A DNA stretch of 27,415 nt from a virus. Taxonomy: Duplodnaviria; Heunggongvirae; Uroviricota; Caudoviricetes. The stretch covers positions 1 through 27,415 of IMG/VR virus record IMGVR_UViG_2681813230_000002, one strand, 5' to 3'. Positions 932 to 21,083 of the stretch are shown here, in pieces (within the stretch, counting starts at the first letter, position 1; the number at the start of each line of letters is the position of its first letter). The position numbers and the translations under genes are program-made. Below the pieces are notes generated by a model, which did no database searches, was not told the DNA's origin, and was given only the letters and a program-made list of their open reading frames with translations.

Positions 932-2878
932 TTATTGCCCAGTGGATTTGGTCATGCCGCGATGGTCCAGCGGCGCCACACCGGCATCAATACGCACTTT
1001 CGTGGCGATACCATCAGTGGTGAAGCCTTCCTGCTGATCGATGTAAGGCGTATCGACACCGTTGAGATAAGCGACCTCGATGGTGTCGGTGCCCTTCGCG
1101 GCGGCCAGATACCAGGCTTTCGCATCCGCTTCATCCAGACGCGGTTCAGCGATGACCTCTGCAAAGTTCTGGATCGGGTTAACGATGCCGGCATTAATAT
1201 CAGCACCTTTAACACTGGCCGACTTGATAGTCTGATTCGCCAGGGTTTCCAGAGCTACAGGCACCAGCATGTAGGCTGGGCGGATATTCAGGGTACGCTC
1301 ACCTTCCTTCTGCAGGCGCATCAGCTTGCGCGCTTCGTCCAGGCTGGCCACTGAAATTGCGCCCGCGCTCAGGTTCTTGTGATCGGCATGGAACAGCGGT
1401 TTGCCGTCGGAGAGTTTTGGGTTTTTGGTCAGGATGGCGTAAACCAGATCGCCAATCGTTGCTTTCGCCGCGCGCCCCATCTTCATCGGCACGTCGGTGA
1501 GCTGGTTCAGATCGTCGTTAATGATCGCCTGGCGGGTTACAGAGAAAATTTCACCATAAGTGGCAAGTGCGATGGTTTCGCCTTTATCACTGGTAGTGAC
1601 GTACTTGTACTCCGCCCCCTCACGAACCTGTCGCAGAGAAGGGAAACCACCCATACCGACACGATGCGCCGTTTTGAAGTCTGACAGCTGGCCTTTTTTG
1701 GTCCACAGTTCGAAGGTTTCCTGGGATTCTTCCCAGCCCTGAAGCAGCGCTTTGTTCGCCACATCGAGCAGAATATTGCCAAAGTCAGAGGTGCTGTGCG
1801 TCAGCGCCAGGCCAACCATCTGCATCGGATTGTAGCTGGATACACCGATACCTTTTTCTGTCAGGGCCATGCGCGCATACTCGCGCAGCGTCATACCGTT
1901 ATAAACGTTATCCCGCTCCTGGCCTTCAAAACCGGCACGCGCCATCAGCGCCTGTCGAATACCATCCGCAACGAAATTACCATTGCCCGCATAAATATGC
2001 GGTTGTGTGGTTTTGTTGGATGGCGTGGCTGTTTTACCGAGCTCTGCCAGCAGCAAATCTTTCGCCTTATCAACGGAACAATCAGGGTCGGCCACGCACT
2101 GATTTTGCAGTTCCGTGTGTTTATTACCGAACATGGCAAAGAGATCACCGATGGCGTTAACACGGGCTTTCTGCTCAGCCAGTACCTGCGCGCGGATCGC
2201 ATTTTCATCCGGCGCCGGGTCAGTTTTTGCCTGCGGTGCCTGAGGCTGGGTAATAACCGGGTCACGCTGGGTAGTATTGCGCGGCGGGGTGATCATGTTG
2301 CGAATGCTTTTTGGCATTTTTTCAAATTCCTCAATACGTTTTGAATGGATACAGGCCATAGCCTGCAGGGATGGAGTCACCTGGTCGGCAAAACCCTTTT
2401 CAAGGCATTCGCTGCCGCTCATCCAGGTTTCGTCTTCCAGCATTGCCGCAATTTCTTCGGTGGATTTCCCGGTTTTCTGCGCGTAAGCCGGGATAAGAAC
2501 GGATTCAACCTTGTCGAGAAGATCCGCATAGTCGCGCATATCAGTCGCATCACCACCAGCAAACCCCCAGGGCTTATGGATCATCATCATCGTGTTTTCA
2601 GGCATGATGACCGGATTGCCTACCATCGCGATCACCGAGGCCATGGAGGCCGCCAGACCGTCGATATGAACGGTAATCGCCGCACCGTGGTGCTTCAGCG
2701 CGTTATAGATAGCAATACCGTCGAAGACATCACCACCGGGTGAGTTGATGTGAAGGTTGATGTGGGTGATGTCACCAAGTGCCCGGAGATCATTGACGAA
2801 CTGTTTCGCCGTTACGCCCCAGTACCCGATTTCGTCATAAATAAAAATGTCGGCCTCGCTGTTATTGCTGGCCTGCAT
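932..2878 (-). CDS. Prohead protease (ClpP/S14 family) fused to major capsid protein (Mu gpT-like HK97 fold)
   Basis: N-terminal ClpP-like block (IFIYDEIGYWG...INSPGGDVFDGIAIYNAL...MASVIAM...MMMIHKPWGF) followed by linker and about 400 aa capsid-like domain. Start moved to ATG at 2878 (MQASNNSEADIF), 13 nt after portal stop; the 764-aa track ORF from 3226 overlaps the portal gene and looks like an out-of-context extension. Confidence 0.8.
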   Translation of the reverse strand: MQASNNSEADIFIYDEIGYWGVTAKQFVNDLRALGDITHINLHINSPGGDVFDGIAIYNALKHHGAAITVHIDGLAASMASVIAMVGNPVIMPENTMMMIHKPWGFAGGDATDMRDYADLLDKVESVLIPAYAQKTGKSTEEIAAMLEDETWMSGSECLEKGFADQVTPSLQAMACIHSKRIEEFEKMPKSIRNMITPPRNTTQRDPVITQPQAPQAKTDPAPDENAIRAQVLAEQKARVNAIGDLFAMFGNKHTELQNQCVADPDCSVDKAKDLLLAELGKTATPSNKTTQPHIYAGNGNFVADGIRQALMARAGFEGQERDNVYNGMTLREYARMALTEKGIGVSSYNPMQMVGLALTHSTSDFGNILLDVANKALLQGWEESQETFELWTKKGQLSDFKTAHRVGMGGFPSLRQVREGAEYKYVTTSDKGETIALATYGEIFSVTRQAIINDDLNQLTDVPMKMGRAAKATIGDLVYAILTKNPKLSDGKPLFHADHKNLSAGAISVASLDEARKLMRLQKEGERTLNIRPAYMLVPVALETLANQTIKSASVKGADINAGIVNPIQNFAEVIAEPRLDEADAKAWYLAAAKGTDTIEVAYLNGVDTPYIDQQEGFTTDGIATKVRIDAGVAPLDHRGMTKSTGQ

Positions 2879-2891
2879 GCGGAACCACGAA

Positions 2892-4391
2892 TTACTTTTT
2901 GCGCTGGCTTTCGGACGGTGGCGCGCCCGGTTCTTTGGCTTCGGCACTGGTGCCTCCTTTATCATTGGCGGGGTCGGTGTCAAACACCAGGCCCTGTTCT
3001 CGGTTCTCGTCAACCTCCGCTTTACGGCGTGACTTAACATCATCCGGGTTGCGACCGCTGGCACGGATCCAGTCGGATTCGGTTGCCGCACCGCCGCGGA
3101 TTTGCGTTTTCCAGGCATTGGCTTCTTTAACGGGATCAATCCACGGCATAACGGGTCCCGAATAAACCGCGTTATACAGCGTGTCCATATCGATGCCTCT
3201 CGGCAGCTTGATTTCTCCGGCAGCAATAGCCATCTTCAGCCAGGCCCGGTACATTGGCCGGGTCACTGAACCGATGAACCAGTCCTGCAAAATCAGATAT
3301 CCGTCGGTTGACTCGACAAGCTCCTGCCGCTGGGCACTGTATGTGCCGTTGTAGTTTCTGGATGTACTGGAAAAACTGAGGCGACTGCCCGCAGATACCG
3401 CCCGCAGCTGTCCGTTACGAAACGACTCGAGGTTAGGGTTCGGGCGATCGGATTTAATCATCCCGATTTCTTCCCCGGCCTGCAGTTCGTCATAGAGCAT
3501 ACCGGGCTGAATCATCAGCTCGCGGTCATCGCTGCTGGAATCTGAATCGAAACTCTGTCCGTCGCCTTTTTTGATATACATGCCGAGTGCCGCAGCAATT
3601 CTTGCTGCAGTAAGCTCCGAGTCCTCGTATTCTTTCAGCGCGCTCAGGCGCATCAGGACGCCAGACAAAAGAGACGTTCCGCGGGTCTGGTGCAGGCGGC
3701 GGGTGAATTTGAGATGGAGCATGTTCTCAGCATCTATCTCTTTCGTATCGAACTGTCGCCCGGATACCGGCAGACTTTTATAGACCTGATATTTTTTAGG
3801 CCGTCCCCAGTTATCGACAAAAACGCCCTGATTAAGCTGGGTGGCTTCATCGCTGTTCATCGGTACGAAATCAGGCTCCAGCGCTTCCAGCCAGAAAGGC
3901 ACACCAGCGACCGGCTGAAGCCCATTTCCGGTACCGCGAACCAGCTGAGCAAAAACCTCGCCGTCCCTGAGCCACGTTCGCAGCATAAGACGCTCAAGCA
4001 TGGGCCGGGTAAACTGGGTTGTGACATCGGGCCTTACGGACCATTCGCCCCACTTTCTGCGGATATCAGTGGCAAGCTTTTTGGCTATCTTCCCGTTACT
4101 CAGCATCGGATGCGGTTCAACTATGATGCCCTTCGCACCCACCACCCTTTCTTCCAGCTTGTCGAAAACGCCGATCACCAGATCGTGGTTGTTATCCAGC
4201 CAGCGCGCCTGCTGCCTCAGCGAAACCGCCCCCATCTGGCTGAGCTGATCGGCTGAACGATTTTCCTTCTGGGCTTTGTGGGTACGCGTTTGCTTTACCG
4301 CCTCATACGCTTTAATAACTGCGCGGGCACGCAGGCGTGAGGCTTTCCAGCCTGGTGAAAACAGGCCAATCGCATCATCTAAAAAACTCAT
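2892..4391 (-). CDS. Portal protein (lambda gpB family)
   Basis: 499 aa; position between gpW and protease-capsid gene; start overlaps gpW stop (ATGA). Confidence 0.8.
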   Translation of the reverse strand: MSFLDDAIGLFSPGWKASRLRARAVIKAYEAVKQTRTHKAQKENRSADQLSQMGAVSLRQQARWLDNNHDLVIGVFDKLEERVVGAKGIIVEPHPMLSNGKIAKKLATDIRRKWGEWSVRPDVTTQFTRPMLERLMLRTWLRDGEVFAQLVRGTGNGLQPVAGVPFWLEALEPDFVPMNSDEATQLNQGVFVDNWGRPKKYQVYKSLPVSGRQFDTKEIDAENMLHLKFTRRLHQTRGTSLLSGVLMRLSALKEYEDSELTAARIAAALGMYIKKGDGQSFDSDSSSDDRELMIQPGMLYDELQAGEEIGMIKSDRPNPNLESFRNGQLRAVSAGSRLSFSSTSRNYNGTYSAQRQELVESTDGYLILQDWFIGSVTRPMYRAWLKMAIAAGEIKLPRGIDMDTLYNAVYSGPVMPWIDPVKEANAWKTQIRGGAATESDWIRASGRNPDDVKSRRKAEVDENREQGLVFDTDPANDKGGTSAEAKEPGAPPSESQRKK

Positions 4392-4599: not shown

Positions 4600-6702
4600 T
4601 CACACCCAACCTCCTGACGAAGACCACGGATTAGCCTGCTCGGTTACGGGCTTCTCACGTTTTGGTTTTGGTTTAGATTTCGGCGCAGGCGGCGGGGATG
4701 GCATTTCGCCAGCTTCCGTCTGCGTGTCCTCGATCCACGTTTCCCGCCGTGCCCACTCAGGAGCTGACGGCCATTTGATTTTTTCGTAACCACTAAGGAT
4801 GGCGAGCGCGTCGGCATAAACGAGCAGGTCAAATGCTTCGTTTGCGCCCCGGCCGGGCTTACTCCATTTCCCTTCATTCGAGCGTTCCTCATACGTCAGT
4901 TCGTCATAGAACCAGCTGCCCAGCCAGGCGGGGAAATGCACATAGCCAGGGCCGGGTGAATCACGCCACAGCGCATTATTCACCCGGTCTTTAAGGGCAT
5001 CGGTCTGGAGAAGATAAAGAGGCACATCACCAGTCGCCTGTGCGCGGCGCGTTGATCTGCCCGTGTTGTCGGGAAACGTTCGCTGGATAAGTTTGCTGCG
5101 CCTGACGCTGTCCCCTTTGAAGAGATAGATACGCTTACCCAGCCCCTCACGGCGACATCTGCGCCAGAACTTGTAGGCATTATCCGTCACGCCATCTTCG
5201 CCCCCTGAGTCCACGGCCATCGACATCAGCCGCATGCCCTTTGATGGGTCAGCTGCGAGCGGCCACGTTTTATCAAAGACGTCAGTGAGTAAAAGATCCC
5301 AGTCCTCCGGATAGCTCGCCGGATCCACCTGAATGCTTTCACCGTTGCCGTCGCAGCGCAGCGAATGCCGGATGTTGTAACGGTCAACTATCCAGCGCTC
5401 ACCCATACTTCCATAACCCGTAATCTGCACAACAAAGCGCCGGTTGCGCCCGGCCTGCACGTCCACGGTCGCAGTGAGAAACTGCACGCCGTTCGGTACC
5501 GAACGTTTTGGGACGTCTTCGGCACGCTGCTCGAGCAATTCACTTTTACGCTGCTCCATGCTGGCTCGCGGCAAATAGGGCCTGCCGAAATCGGTGTTGA
5601 TCACCGTCTTCAGGGTTTCTTCGCTGCGCGTGGATTCATATTCCTGCTCGGCGGTCAGAAACTTATAAATAAGCTGCGCCCAGGTCTGGTAAGCAGCTGC
5701 CGGACCTTCCATCCAGAAGGAGGCAATACGGGAACGACGGCCATCACCGCTAACCAGGCCTTTCCTGTCGATGGTTTGCCCGTCCCGGAGCCAGACACAT
5801 TTCATGTTAAGCGCACGCTTCATGTCCGGTGTGATCCTGCCTTTACAGGCAGGGCACTGAAGAAACGCCGCTTCGCTGGCAAGCACAGGATCGCTGCTGT
5901 CGCGGTATCCGGTCATATTGTCCATTTCCGGCTGGAAATATTCGCCGCAATGCGGGCATGGCCAGTAAAGACGACGGCGGTCACCACGGTTATAGAGCGA
6001 TAAAATTCCGGTGGTCGGAGGGGCTTCATGGGGCGTGGAGCGCCGCCATTTTGTGTCTCTGATATCCCTCCCGGGCGAGCTCTCAACCAGCGTCATCCCG
6101 GAGGACATGAATGTCGTGGTTCGTTTCGATGCCAGTGAAAAAGCATCCCCCTCCCCGTCGATATCTTCCGGAAAGCGGTCATAATCCGTCAGCGCCACAC
6201 TTTTATAGTCCGAGGACGACATGATATTGACGGATGGCCAGCCCAGCTTCAGATAGTTACCGGCGCGGAATGTACGGTCGTAGACGTTGTTATCGTTACG
6301 TCTTGGGCTTAGCCGGGTTTTAACTTCAGGGCTACAGCGAAAAGTACGGTCCAGGCGTTTTTTGGAATGCTCGCGCGCTTTTTCCTCAGATACCTGAATT
6401 ACAAGCATATCTGCCGGATCGCAGACAATGTTATAAACGATCCAGCCGTCAATCAGCCCGATGGTTTTACCCGTTCGCGCTGGGCCCACAAACACAACCG
6501 CATCGTATTCACGCGATGCCAGACAGTTCATCGGCTCAATCACATAGGGTGCCAGATCCGGATCCCACGGAACTGAGTTTCCCGCCCCCATTGGCACGCG
6601 CATATAAGTACTGACCGCATCGGCCACCGGCATACGACGCGGGGCTCGTAAAATACCGGAAACATCGCGGCGGATGTCCCTGGCGGATGCCCGCTTTGCC
6701 AT
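4600..6702 (-). CDS. Terminase large subunit (lambda gpA family)
   Basis: 700 aa, Walker A-like GPARTGKT near N-terminus, follows Nu1-like gene with 1-nt overlap. Confidence 0.85.
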   Translation of the reverse strand: MAKRASARDIRRDVSGILRAPRRMPVADAVSTYMRVPMGAGNSVPWDPDLAPYVIEPMNCLASREYDAVVFVGPARTGKTIGLIDGWIVYNIVCDPADMLVIQVSEEKAREHSKKRLDRTFRCSPEVKTRLSPRRNDNNVYDRTFRAGNYLKLGWPSVNIMSSSDYKSVALTDYDRFPEDIDGEGDAFSLASKRTTTFMSSGMTLVESSPGRDIRDTKWRRSTPHEAPPTTGILSLYNRGDRRRLYWPCPHCGEYFQPEMDNMTGYRDSSDPVLASEAAFLQCPACKGRITPDMKRALNMKCVWLRDGQTIDRKGLVSGDGRRSRIASFWMEGPAAAYQTWAQLIYKFLTAEQEYESTRSEETLKTVINTDFGRPYLPRASMEQRKSELLEQRAEDVPKRSVPNGVQFLTATVDVQAGRNRRFVVQITGYGSMGERWIVDRYNIRHSLRCDGNGESIQVDPASYPEDWDLLLTDVFDKTWPLAADPSKGMRLMSMAVDSGGEDGVTDNAYKFWRRCRREGLGKRIYLFKGDSVRRSKLIQRTFPDNTGRSTRRAQATGDVPLYLLQTDALKDRVNNALWRDSPGPGYVHFPAWLGSWFYDELTYEERSNEGKWSKPGRGANEAFDLLVYADALAILSGYEKIKWPSAPEWARRETWIEDTQTEAGEMPSPPPAPKSKPKPKREKPVTEQANPWSSSGGWV

Positions 6703-7202
6703 CAGTCCTCCTCAGGCTGCTCCTCCTCTTTTCCAGCGTCCTGCACCTTCTCCGCCATCTGGTCGCGCAGATCATCGATAACGCTTTGCACACGAACTAC
6801 CGCAGCAGGCGTTAAAGCACAGTCGCGCTCGAGCACATCCGGGAGGGTTTCAAGTACCATGACGACGGCTTTCGCCATCAATGAGAATTCTCGCGCCACT
6901 TCATCTGCGGGTATTAACTGCCCCGTATCCTGTTCGAACTTCAGCCTCTCGTTCTCTGCTTTCCAGTGGGACAGCCTGTCAGAAGGGGGCATATCGTCGA
7001 TGTTGGCCGAAACGGTAGGGATCATCAGTTCGGTCAGAATGTCGGTCACCAGATAGAGCTTTAACTTGCTATTGCTGCCTGGAGCAGGTTCAACATTTTT
7101 CAGTCTCGCGGCAACCGTCTGACGGTGTACGCCGGTTATCCCTGCCAGCTGGTTGATATTGAGTTTTAAAGTGGCAATTTCCTGGTCCATGATGGTGAAC
7201 AC
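6702..7202 (-). CDS. Terminase small subunit (lambda Nu1-like, N-terminal HTH)
   Basis: 166 aa; N-terminal motif NINQLAGITGVHRQTVAARL resembles Nu1 winged-HTH; acidic C-terminus; immediately downstream of cos-like site. Confidence 0.65.
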   Translation of the reverse strand: MFTIMDQEIATLKLNINQLAGITGVHRQTVAARLKNVEPAPGSNSKLKLYLVTDILTELMIPTVSANIDDMPPSDRLSHWKAENERLKFEQDTGQLIPADEVAREFSLMAKAVVMVLETLPDVLERDCALTPAAVVRVQSVIDDLRDQMAEKVQDAGKEEEQPEED

Positions 7203-7295
7203 TTTTTGAACGATTCGACATGTTGCGAAAATGGCCTCTAATTAAATCAAAGACCTGCGCACATGATGATGATGACCCTGGATCCGAAAAACTAG

Positions 7296-7350
7296 CCGTT
7301 TCCCGCGAGCGCGCCGCCCCGTGGTAGGCAACCCCGCCGGGAGGACCCAT
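7296..7350 (-). other. cos site (cosN-like); predicted 12-nt cohesive end GGGCGGCGCGCT at 7308-7319 on the minus strand
   Basis: Minus-strand sequence ATGGGTCCTCCCGGCGGGGTTGCCTACCACGGGGCGGCGCGCTCGCGGGAAACGG closely resembles my recollection of the lambda genome-end junction (GGGTCCTTTCCGG...TTACG then GGGCGGCGACCTCGCGGGTTTTCG); lies about 110 bp upstream of the Nu1-like start. Confidence 0.65.
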
Positions 7351-7427: not shown

Positions 7428-7451
7428 AAAAAAGCCCCGCATAGGCGAGGC
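7428..7451 (-). terminator. Rho-independent terminator downstream of the peptidase cassette
   Basis: Minus strand reads GCCTCGC-CTAT-GCGGGGC (7-bp stem with one G-U) followed by TTTTTT. Confidence 0.55.
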
Positions 7452-7470
7452 TGGAATCAGACAGGGGGGA

Positions 7471-8373
7471 TTAAGACTGGATATTCCAAATCATTGCGTT
7501 ACCGTTATGATTTTCAATGATTTTTGCCAGTGGTGCTCCACCAAAAGAATGCATGTAGCTGTGATGTATAGTCAAAACCAAATCTTGAAGTACTTGATCA
7601 CTTTCAAGTTCGGTAACATTCAACCCAATTTTCTGCGCCTTATCAAAATGAATATGACGCGAGTGGGTATAGGTTGTGTGATGGTTGTTTAACTCTGAAC
7701 AAACATGTGTTGCTTTTGATTCTGCCTCAGGATCATTATCAAACATGCCTGTCATAAGCCAATGCTTAACAATCTCATTTGCCCATTTGATTGCTTTCTC
7801 ACACTCGCCGATGATCGTCGGGTTTAGCTTTTGAAGAATGAACTGCCACATCTGAACAGCTGCGGGATTTTGAAAAATTTCCGTCTGCGCACGATTCCAT
7901 TCTTCAATGATGGCATGGGTGGAGAAACCGTTGAACTGAGGATCAATTGGGCCAATGTTGGACTGTTTACCCATGATGATTTCATTGGCACAACATGCAA
8001 GCATAGTTCCGCAGGACATTGAAATCATAGGAACAATTGCTCTGATGTTAGTTCCAAACTTCGACCTTAAGTAATGCCCGATTGATTCCAAAGCGGCAAT
8101 ATCACCACCTGGAGTATGAAGTATCAAATCCAACCCTTTTGATACATCTAAACCATTGATGGCTGTCATCAACCCGTTCTTATCATCATCAGTCATCTGA
8201 GTAAGATGGCGTACTTCTGCACCACCATGCTGTAACCACCCTGAGTAATATGTGATTACATTTCTTCCAGTATGATTCGAAAGTTGAGATAAGTATTTAC
8301 GGCGAACCTCATCCATAGGACTTTTATGGGCGAGAGCCGTTATCTCGCCCAGTACGTCGCTCCAATTAGGCAT
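7471..8373 (-). CDS. SDH/S49-like Clp-fold serine peptidase (accessory moron)
   Basis: 300 aa with motifs LILHTPGGDIAALESIGHYL and MISMSCGTMLACCANEIIMG typical of ClpP/SppA-fold serine peptidases; AT-rich relative to flanking phage genes. Confidence 0.7.
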   Translation of the reverse strand: MPNWSDVLGEITALAHKSPMDEVRRKYLSQLSNHTGRNVITYYSGWLQHGGAEVRHLTQMTDDDKNGLMTAINGLDVSKGLDLILHTPGGDIAALESIGHYLRSKFGTNIRAIVPMISMSCGTMLACCANEIIMGKQSNIGPIDPQFNGFSTHAIIEEWNRAQTEIFQNPAAVQMWQFILQKLNPTIIGECEKAIKWANEIVKHWLMTGMFDNDPEAESKATHVCSELNNHHTTYTHSRHIHFDKAQKIGLNVTELESDQVLQDLVLTIHHSYMHSFGGAPLAKIIENHNGNAMIWNIQS

Positions 8374-8376
8374 AAA

Positions 8377-8577
8377 TCAGTACGTGTAAAGTTGATGACT
8401 TGTAGTTTGGTTTTGCTTCGATTGTGTAGCGGTACCTTGTGAGTACCAAACACCTGTGTTTCCACTCGTACTAGTTTGCTGTGCCATTACACGAGAAGCG
8501 AAGTTGTTAACAGTTTCACCAGTCAACATTTCTGCCGGTTTGATATTGTAAACATCGTAGAACTCAGCTGGGGTCAT
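8377..8577 (-). CDS. Small hypothetical protein, 66 aa, with Ser/Thr/Gln/Asn-rich C-terminus
   Basis: ORF ends 4 nt before the peptidase start; strong SD (AAGGAG) 7 nt upstream of ATG; AT-rich. Confidence 0.5.
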   Translation of the reverse strand: MTPAEFYDVYNIKPAEMLTGETVNNFASRVMAQQTSTSGNTGVWYSQGTATQSKQNQTTSHQLYTY

Positions 8578-20414: not shown

Positions 20415-21083
20415 ATGATTCGTCTTAACAACGAAATTAAAAATCAGCTATGCCATAACCTGCTTCTCGCATCCCCATTGTTTGAGAAAGCGAAAGCTGC
20501 GGTTAATGAGAGGGCGAAAATTGTTGAAGAAATTCGACAGGCATTGCTCAAGCAGGAAAACACTAGCGATGAGCAAATAACTAAGGCTCGGGAAGATTTC
20601 AAAGATAACTCCTTCATCAAGATGCAGGTCGGCGCTAAAACTGCAATTTTAAAGGTCATTATTAATGGTGAGTATCACGAATTAGCCAGGAACGGTTTGG
20701 ATCATCGCTATCGCCACCGTGGAAAACATATTGGTAAGCACGATCTTGAAAGCGACCTGTTCTTCGGAGCTTCCTTCGCGCCTGTAATTGATTCGGGTTT
20801 CGTTCCTGAAAGTTACAGCACGCTGAAGAAAGTTGGAAAATTACACGACCGACTCACTGAATCGACGGTAACCATCAACGTTCTTTACGATGAAGTTGAT
20901 GCCTTCCAATTGCAGGTTAAAGGTGCTCTAACCAAAGTCTCAACTGTTAAAAAACTGGCTGAGATGTGGCCTGAGGCAGTGCCATATTTGCCTGAGGTGG
21001 AACGCCGTGAAGCGACCAGCACCGCACTTGCCATTCCCGTTGAAACGCTAAACGCCCTTTGCGGCATACCAAAGAATGAATGA
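20415..21083 (+). CDS. Hypothetical protein, 222 aa (pL-proximal moron; no family recognised)
   Basis: Clean ORF with lower GC than flanks, preceded by hairpin TCCCGC-ATCA-GCGGGA and a 370-bp ORF-free leader, followed by a strong terminator. Confidence 0.55.
   Translation: MIRLNNEIKNQLCHNLLLASPLFEKAKAAVNERAKIVEEIRQALLKQENTSDEQITKAREDFKDNSFIKMQVGAKTAILKVIINGEYHELARNGLDHRYRHRGKHIGKHDLESDLFFGASFAPVIDSGFVPESYSTLKKVGKLHDRLTESTVTINVLYDEVDAFQLQVKGALTKVSTVKKLAEMWPEAVPYLPEVERREATSTALAIPVETLNALCGIPKNE

Follow-up and report, generated by a model that had tools for sequence, protein, structure and literature searches.

A lambda-type cos site precedes a DUF1441-family small terminase gene in an E. coli prophage

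The stretch of DNA analysed here, 27,415 nucleotides in all and hereafter called the window, is an E. coli prophage, and the minus-strand site that a first-pass annotation had picked out at 7350..7296 is a genuine lambda-type cos, already known and unsurprising. We consider it very probable that the site is complete and belongs to a lambdoid prophage of the mEp213/mEp043/LLS type, with a Gifsy-2-like head module, resident in an E. coli chromosome. Its true extent is 7348..7188: the interval first marked out takes in cosQ and cosN but only part of the flanking box, and it leaves out cosB, which runs on to 7188. Counting the first base of the overhang as +1, the elements around the predicted cut are as follows.

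7348..7342, minus strand: heptamer GGGTCCT, cosQ-like, starting at -29 from the nick; predicted packaging-termination element by analogy with lambda
7303..7324, minus strand: cosN, CCACG-GGGCGGCGCGCT-CGCGG, matching lambda cosN at 19/21, with predicted nicks
7319..7308, minus strand: predicted 12-nt 5' cohesive end GGGCGGCGCGCT, the same 12 bases annotated in PQ299149.1
7320/7319 on the minus strand and 7308/7307 on the plus strand: predicted nicks
7284..7307, minus strand: conserved box CGCGGGAAACGGCTAGTTTTTCGG, right of the nick, at the position of the lambda I2 segment; putative functional element

On the minus strand the region reads TTAT, GGGTCCT, CCCGGCGGGGTTGCCTAC, CACG, GGGCGGCGCGCT and CGCGGGAAACGGCTAGTTTTTCGG, with a cosQ-to-nick gap of 22 bp made up of an 18-nt spacer and CACG. 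The 22-bp equivalent of cosN is CCACGGGGCGGCGCGCTCGCGG (7324..7303), and CGCGGG begins at 7307. The bases originally quoted from this strand are present exactly as written, and their likeness to lambda cos was borne out when we aligned them with the lambda junction formed by the real ends in NC_001416. The heptamer matches lambda cosQ at 7/7 positions and starts at -29, as against -30 in lambda, and is thus 1 bp nearer the nick; the 12-nt overhang matches lambda GGGCGGCGACCT at 10/12, with mismatches at positions 9 and 10. The lambda 21-mer ACGGGGCGGCGACCTCGCGGG finds a single match in the window, with 2 mismatches (19/21), against 0.00 expected from 100 dinucleotide shuffles, and the composite GGGTCCT-N18-CACGGGGCGGCG-N4-CGCGG is likewise unique, with 0.00 expected; the alignment is thus far above chance. 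As in lambda, CG dinucleotides lie at both predicted nicks, the window reading CACG, nick, GGG...GCT, nick, CGCGG. Dyad symmetry of cosN is 12/22 in the window and 10/22 in lambda.

The site is followed directly by the two terminase genes.

6702..7190, minus strand: small terminase (TerS), 162 aa; Pfam DUF1441 (7.6e-42) and PHROG 141 (phrog_141, 7e-68)
4600..6702, minus strand: large terminase (TerL), 700 aa; gpA family, with ATPase and nuclease domains

TerL hits GpA_ATPase (PF05876, 1.7e-73) and GpA_nuclease (PF20454, 2.2e-83), is homologous to lambda gpA (24% identity, E = 6e-17, BLASTP), and shares 693 of 700 residues (99%, end to end) with its counterpart in the viable phage LLS. The gpA-type TerL group is associated with 5' cohesive ends (PMC12315714). 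TerS, for its part, is 100% identical to TerS of mEp043/mEp213. The first-pass annotation had placed the site about 110 bp upstream of a Nu1-like gene. A small terminase gene is indeed there, its ATG (7190) lying 117 bp from the overhang end and 129 bp from the first overhang base, but it is not a Nu1 homologue: Pfam returns DUF1441 and no Phage_Nu1 (PF07471), and the gene is a small terminase by position and PHROG. BLASTP finds no similarity between the window TerS and lambda Nu1, and only E = 0.30 against N15 gp1; lambda Nu1 and N15 gp1 both score as Phage_Nu1. When DUF1441 proteins (36 sequences) were compared with Nu1 relatives (16) by hhalign, only a 22-residue helix-turn-helix aligned, at 6.5% probability. 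Because these sequence and profile searches were negative while position and PHROG indicate a small terminase, we place TerS outside the Nu1 family and regard it as Nu1-like in role.

A sequence search of the PDB with TerS gave no match. Its AlphaFold2 (AF2) model (mean pLDDT 75.5) has an N-terminal strand-helix-helix-strand-helix arrangement resembling a winged helix-turn-helix (HTH), followed by three long helices. Foldseek against the PDB returned local matches to MerR-type winged-HTH domains, all at E > 0.1; 1j9i, the DNA-binding domain of gpNu1, was among them, aligned across 49 columns with an rmsd of 2.9 A. We considered remote homology between TerS and Nu1 and rejected it, as BLASTP, Pfam and hhalign were negative or insignificant and Foldseek gave only the weak local winged-HTH likeness; the predicted fold suggests that the domain plan is possibly Nu1-like. 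Several Nu1 relatives (P0202, P0204, P0206, P0208-P0210 and others) carry a precomputed Pfam DUF1441 hit beside Phage_Nu1, perhaps a faint trace of remote kinship between the two families; the hit on P0202 was not reproduced at E <= 1.

Along the minus strand come Q, holin, endolysin and Rz, then two cargo ORFs and cos, followed by TerS, TerL, a head-tail adaptor, a lambda-family portal and the protease-capsid gene, an arrangement standard for lambdoid late operons. The reading frames of the Q, lysis, portal and capsid genes are intact. A 764-aa ORF (932-3226, minus strand) combines head maturation protease and major head protein families (phrog_133, phrog_4523), and is thus a fused protease-capsid gene of the sort noted for Gifsy-2-type heads (PMC12315714). 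The window also holds 6 Chi sites (GCTGGTGG; positions 2553, 9153, 9442, 23766, 25514 and 25570) against 1.14 expected, a number that 0/100 shuffles reach, and 5/6 lie on the minus strand, that of the late operon and cos. Chi enrichment with strong strand bias has been described for LLS-type lambdoid phages (PMC12315714). Two cargo ORFs occupy the interval between the Rz spanin gene and cosQ (7433-8577, minus strand).

8377..8577, minus strand: cargo ORF, 66 aa; phrog_25714
7471..8373, minus strand: SDH-type ClpP-like serine protease, 300 aa; PF01972, phrog_11747
7452..7433, minus strand: terminator-like hairpin after the cargo ORFs

Neither the protease nor the small ORF is recognised by PADLOC. 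The cos/TerS region itself is present in 67 of 5,426 complete E. coli genomes, and 11 of these 67 have the same upstream gene and cargo ORFs; mEp043 and LLS have unrelated DNA there. An 86-aa ORF runs across cosN and cosB (7090-7350, minus strand), its ATG fused to cosQ (ATGGGTCCT), and the mEp043 record PV340537.1 annotates a 'hypothetical protein' over cosQ and cosN (20503-20634). Such ORFs called over cos are most likely spurious gene calls.

We collected 108 loci with TerS relatives from species-representative genomes and IMG/VR and compared them with the window column by column. Among 93 unique sequences, columns left of 7348 agree with the window at ~0-30%, and from GGGTCCT on the agreement rises to 80-99%. 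The cos module therefore has a sharp left boundary at cosQ. For counts at each position, 89 unique sequences were anchored on the invariant flanking box, and the majority base was found as follows.

cosQ heptamer: 75-87 of 89 at each of the seven positions
positions -5..-1: 87-89 of 89
overhang +1..+7: 84-89 of 89
overhang +8: 70 of 89
overhang +9: 41 of 89
overhang +10..+12: 79-83 of 89
flank +13..+17: 88-89 of 89

These 89 relatives have 23 distinct overhangs, and that of the window, GGGCGGCGCGCT, occurs in 38. In lambda-like phages, conservation covers cosQ, the left half of the overhang and the CG at the nicks, leaving the right half free to vary (PMC4669245); the window clade shows the same left/right asymmetry, its overhang variation being limited to the right half. 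The box right of the nick is nearly invariant among the relatives, and it is recognisable in all the diverged phages with a DUF1441 TerS that we compared, as well as partly in the cyanophage Cr-LKS3. The cosQ-cosN spacer varies freely, without covariation. A conserved hairpin in this G+C-rich spacer was considered and rejected, RNAalifold finding 0 compensatory pairs in 27 diverse sequences, with a covariation term of 0.02.

Some relatives depart from this pattern. The distant DUF1441-TerS phages of Aliivibrio (H905), Aeromonas (AhyVDH1) and Klebsiella (Seifer) have no GGGTCCT or CGCGG upstream of TerS, and a lambda-like cosN is therefore not universal in the DUF1441 TerS family. In about one in seven relatives a second cosQ allele, (A)AGGTACTCC, replaces GGGTCCTCC at ~29 bp before the nick (L014, L027, L037, L091, L092, L096-L098, L106, L107 and L109-L111, as well as L128 [Gifsy-2], L129 [Fels-1] and L130 [Pmp14]). 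This contrasts with an earlier statement that natural cosQ variation is not apparent (PMC4669245).

The site has a published precedent. Megablast against phage records found mEp043, mEp213, Eeyore, Flotzy and LLS at 98-99% identity from cos to TerS, the similarity setting in at query 1051-1053, that is window 7350..7348, at the start of GGGTCCT. In the LLS record, PQ299149.1, the first base corresponds to window 7319, and the annotation there reads "5' extended single-strand cohesive site GGGCGGCGCGCT". The 12-nt overhang first predicted from the window is thus the one given in that annotation and, for LLS and mEp213, in PMC12315714, both of which are also inferences; the latter cites 2017 work and a personal communication from M. 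Feiss, and its Nanopore reads of LLS left the ends around cos uncovered. Because it appears in PQ299149 and PMC12315714, the cos was already known for near-identical phages, at that level of support. LLS and mEp213/mEp043 share with the window the overhang, the cosQ heptamer, the 22-bp cosQ-to-nick distance and the flanking box; cosQ through TerS is 98-99% identical, TerS 98-100% and TerL 99%. They differ from it at a few bases of the spacer and in the DNA directly upstream of cosQ, which is unrelated.

Ends of contigs and records coincide with the predicted nicks. In metagenome contigs L059 and L176, from different samples, contig position 1 is the first overhang base; L059 opens with GGGCGGCGCGCT and L176 with GGGCGGCGGACT, two overhang variants. 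Among 120 pattern-matched loci, L176 alone has the box within 60 nt of an end. The record of Hafnia phage yong2 starts with CGCGGGAAACGG (+13) and ends with GGGTCCT-N22-GGGGCAGCGACA (+12), and that of cdtI starts with GGGCGGGAGCGT-CGCGG (+1) and ends with GGGTCCT-N22 (-1); we found no stated basis for the ends of the yong2 and cdtI records. An experimental precedent comes from Cr-LKS3, whose authors describe a 9-nt 5' extension, GGGCTCGCG, at a spot homologous to that in the window; the next bases, CGCGGAAGTCGGCAGTTTTTCGG, are similar to CGCGGGAAACGGCTAGTTTTTCGG of the window, and the Cr-LKS3 TerS is a DUF1441 protein. The nick flanks stand 9 nt apart in the record of mEp460_4F5 (L117, LR595868, 1-40; GGGCGGGAG-CGCGG) and 11 nt apart in VT1-Sakai (L119, about 397-420). 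They are 12 nt apart (GGGCGGGAGCGT-CGCGG) in 569R4, PhiR40_1 and cdtI, which are close to the 9- and 11-nt records. Either the assemblies have collapsed at cos in the cases with shorter spacing, or the overhang truly varies in length. Collectively, the sequence of the site, the gpA-family TerL, the conservation pattern and the ends of related contigs and records support the original reading of lambda-type cos packaging.

Between the flanking box and the terS start, we find elements that recall lambda cosB, spanning 7276..7188.

7262..7276 (+44..+58), minus strand: putative R3-like TerS site GTCATCATCATCATG, a triplet tract
7245..7257 (+63..+75), plus strand: putative IHF-like core AATCAAAGACCTG, between R3 and R2
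7211..7222 (near +96), minus strand: putative R2-like site CATGTCGAATCG, inverted (reverse complement CGATTCGACATG); weak in the window, about 7/10
7188..7201 (near +122), minus strand: putative R1-like site TGTTCACCATCATG, a direct repeat that takes in the TerS start codon

In the window the R1 and R3 tracts form a direct repeat, 9/10 to 10/11 identical. The box, the triplet tract, a TTGAT core and copies of the tract are conserved across lineages whose TerS proteins are only 40-65% identical. The box is conserved as CGCGGRAAAMGGCTAGTTTTT at +13..+33, and the triplet tract lies at about +44..+58 in all Enterobacterales lineages examined, with a lineage-dependent motif (CATCAT, CACCAC, GCAGCA or CAGCACTGAA). 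The TTGAT core, at about +63..+76, gives an IHF consensus on the other strand, with one mismatch to WATCAANNNNTTR in the window. By count, IHF-consensus matches in the window (16 vs 19.2 expected) are not significant; read by eye, the consensus is perfect at the same place in cdtI, 569R4 and L032.

We searched for repeats blindly, with shuffled controls, and the positive control recovered lambda R3, R2 and R1 (0/500 shuffles). A direct copy of the tract lies at +112..+126 in 9 of 11 DUF1441 lineages, and an inverted copy of a lineage's own R3 motif at +94..+98 in 6 of 11. Significance ranges by lineage from 2/500 and 5/500 shuffles to not significant, with the window at 41/500. The motif changes together at all three places: it is CATCAT in the window, Klebsiella, Fels-1 and VT1-Sakai, CACCAC in 569R4, and TCGACACTGAA in Gifsy-2, where R1 and the inverted R2 are 12/12 identical. 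L032 has GCAGCA, and its TerS helix reads NRNL where most others read HRQT. A lambda-style R3-I1-R2-R1 cosB serving a different small-subunit family is a reasonable, but unproven, reading of these repeats. More tentatively, and with somewhat less than even confidence, we suggest that DUF1441 TerS proteins may form a separate packaging-specificity class that has reached or kept the lambda cosB layout although its sequences show no detectable kinship with Nu1, with triplet sites that co-vary with the recognition helix. No description of a DUF1441 cosB class was found in the literature searched, a search to which Vahanian et al. 2017 did not belong. In the window, the TerS start codon falls inside the last CATCAT-type repeat, TGTTCACCATCATG, as it does in yong2 and the Klebsiella, Atlantibacter and Symbiopectobacterium relatives, and putative terminase binding there could couple to terS translation.

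Set beside other cos systems, the window resembles lambda in its cosQ, cosN, nick-flanking CG and homologous TerL, and it likely also has the lambda order of R3, IHF site, inverted R2 and R1 ahead of the small-subunit gene. It differs from lambda in a shorter cosB (ATG at +130 vs +191), in CATCAT-type rather than CGTTTCC-type repeats, and in a DUF1441 TerS in place of Nu1. N15 pairs a gp1 of the Nu1 family with a cosB containing a single R site, whereas the window has another TerS family and three apparent repeats. Gifsy-2, Fels-1, VT1-Sakai/Stx phages, cdtI, mEp460 and yong2 have the TerS family in common with the window (40-65% identity). This group has the same geometry (cosQ, 22 bp, nick, 12 nt, CGCGG), a GGCTAGTTTTT box, and a putative cosB in which three repeats accompany an IHF-like core, the repeat motifs being lineage-specific; some members have the heptamer AGGTACT instead of GGGTCCT, and mEp460-like phages have a longer cosB (174 bp). 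Cr-LKS3 shares the DUF1441 TerS and gpA TerL, and its reported 5' extension starts with GGGC and is followed by CGCGGAAGTCGGCAGTTTTTCGG; it differs in its 9-nt overhang and in a cosQ-like GGGTCCC 33 bp from the nick, and its host and genome are otherwise unrelated.

If the resemblance to lambda were a chance likeness of G+C-rich DNA, the phage might instead package by the headful (pac) route. This account is effectively refuted by the zero chance matches expected for the lambda 21-mer and the composite, by a TerL of the gpA type, whose group is tied to 5' cohesive ends (PMC12315714), and by a conservation onset exactly at cosQ and contig ends at the nick. An intact-looking cos could also sit in a defective (cryptic) prophage and never be cut in this host. 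Defective prophages are common in E. coli, and the window (27 kb) covers only part of the prophage, yet we think this improbable, as the cos-to-TerS stretch is 98-99% identical to that of plaque-forming mEp043, mEp213, LLS, Eeyore and Flotzy, mEp043 has the very same TerS (100%), the full-length TerL matches that of LLS at 99%, and the Q, lysis, portal and capsid ORFs are intact. This objection in any case bears on activity in the strain and not on the identity of the element.

The site could also be a genuine cos with a stagger other than 12 nt, its second nick lying elsewhere and leaving, for example, a 9-11-nt overhang. In keeping with this, contigs L059 and L176 fix the left nick only, the flanks are separated by 11 nt in VT1-Sakai and by 9 nt in the record of mEp460_4F5, and Cr-LKS3, whose TerS is of this family too, carries a 9-nt extension according to its authors. 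Nevertheless, cosQ lies 41 bp (29 + 12) from CGCGG in nearly all Enterobacterales relatives, the yong2 record ends give a 12-nt difference, the start of the cdtI record agrees with 12 nt, and CG dinucleotides lie at both predicted nicks as in lambda, so that a different stagger is very improbable. We thus favor a complete lambda-type cos with a 12-nt overhang.

By analogy with lambda, we infer cleavage at this site, its 12-nt stagger, TerS-CATCAT binding, IHF involvement and the function of cosQ, and the following scheme, which fits the whole of the sequence evidence, is proposed in that sense. During late growth, the DUF1441-type TerS would bind the cosB repeats (7276..7188), probably helped by an IHF-induced bend, and would position the gpA-family TerL on cosN. 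TerL would then nick the strands 12 bp apart, at 7320/7319 on the minus strand and 7308/7307 on the plus strand, and strand separation would yield a left chromosome end with the 5' extension GGGCGGCGCGCT. DNA would be pumped into the prohead toward the terminase and head genes, that is toward lower window coordinates, until, at the next cos on the concatemer, cosQ (7348..7342) and cosN trigger the terminating cut.

For this prophage, the cos fixes the genome ends and the direction of packaging, and its value is mostly one of annotation, which includes correction of the 'Nu1-like' label of the small terminase. At the level of the family, cosQ marks the module boundary where unrelated cargo genes get swapped in. 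The cosB comparison supplies ready natural specificity variants for studies of DNA recognition by the small terminase, and these variants could help predict cross-packaging among lambda-like helper phages and cos-bearing islands.
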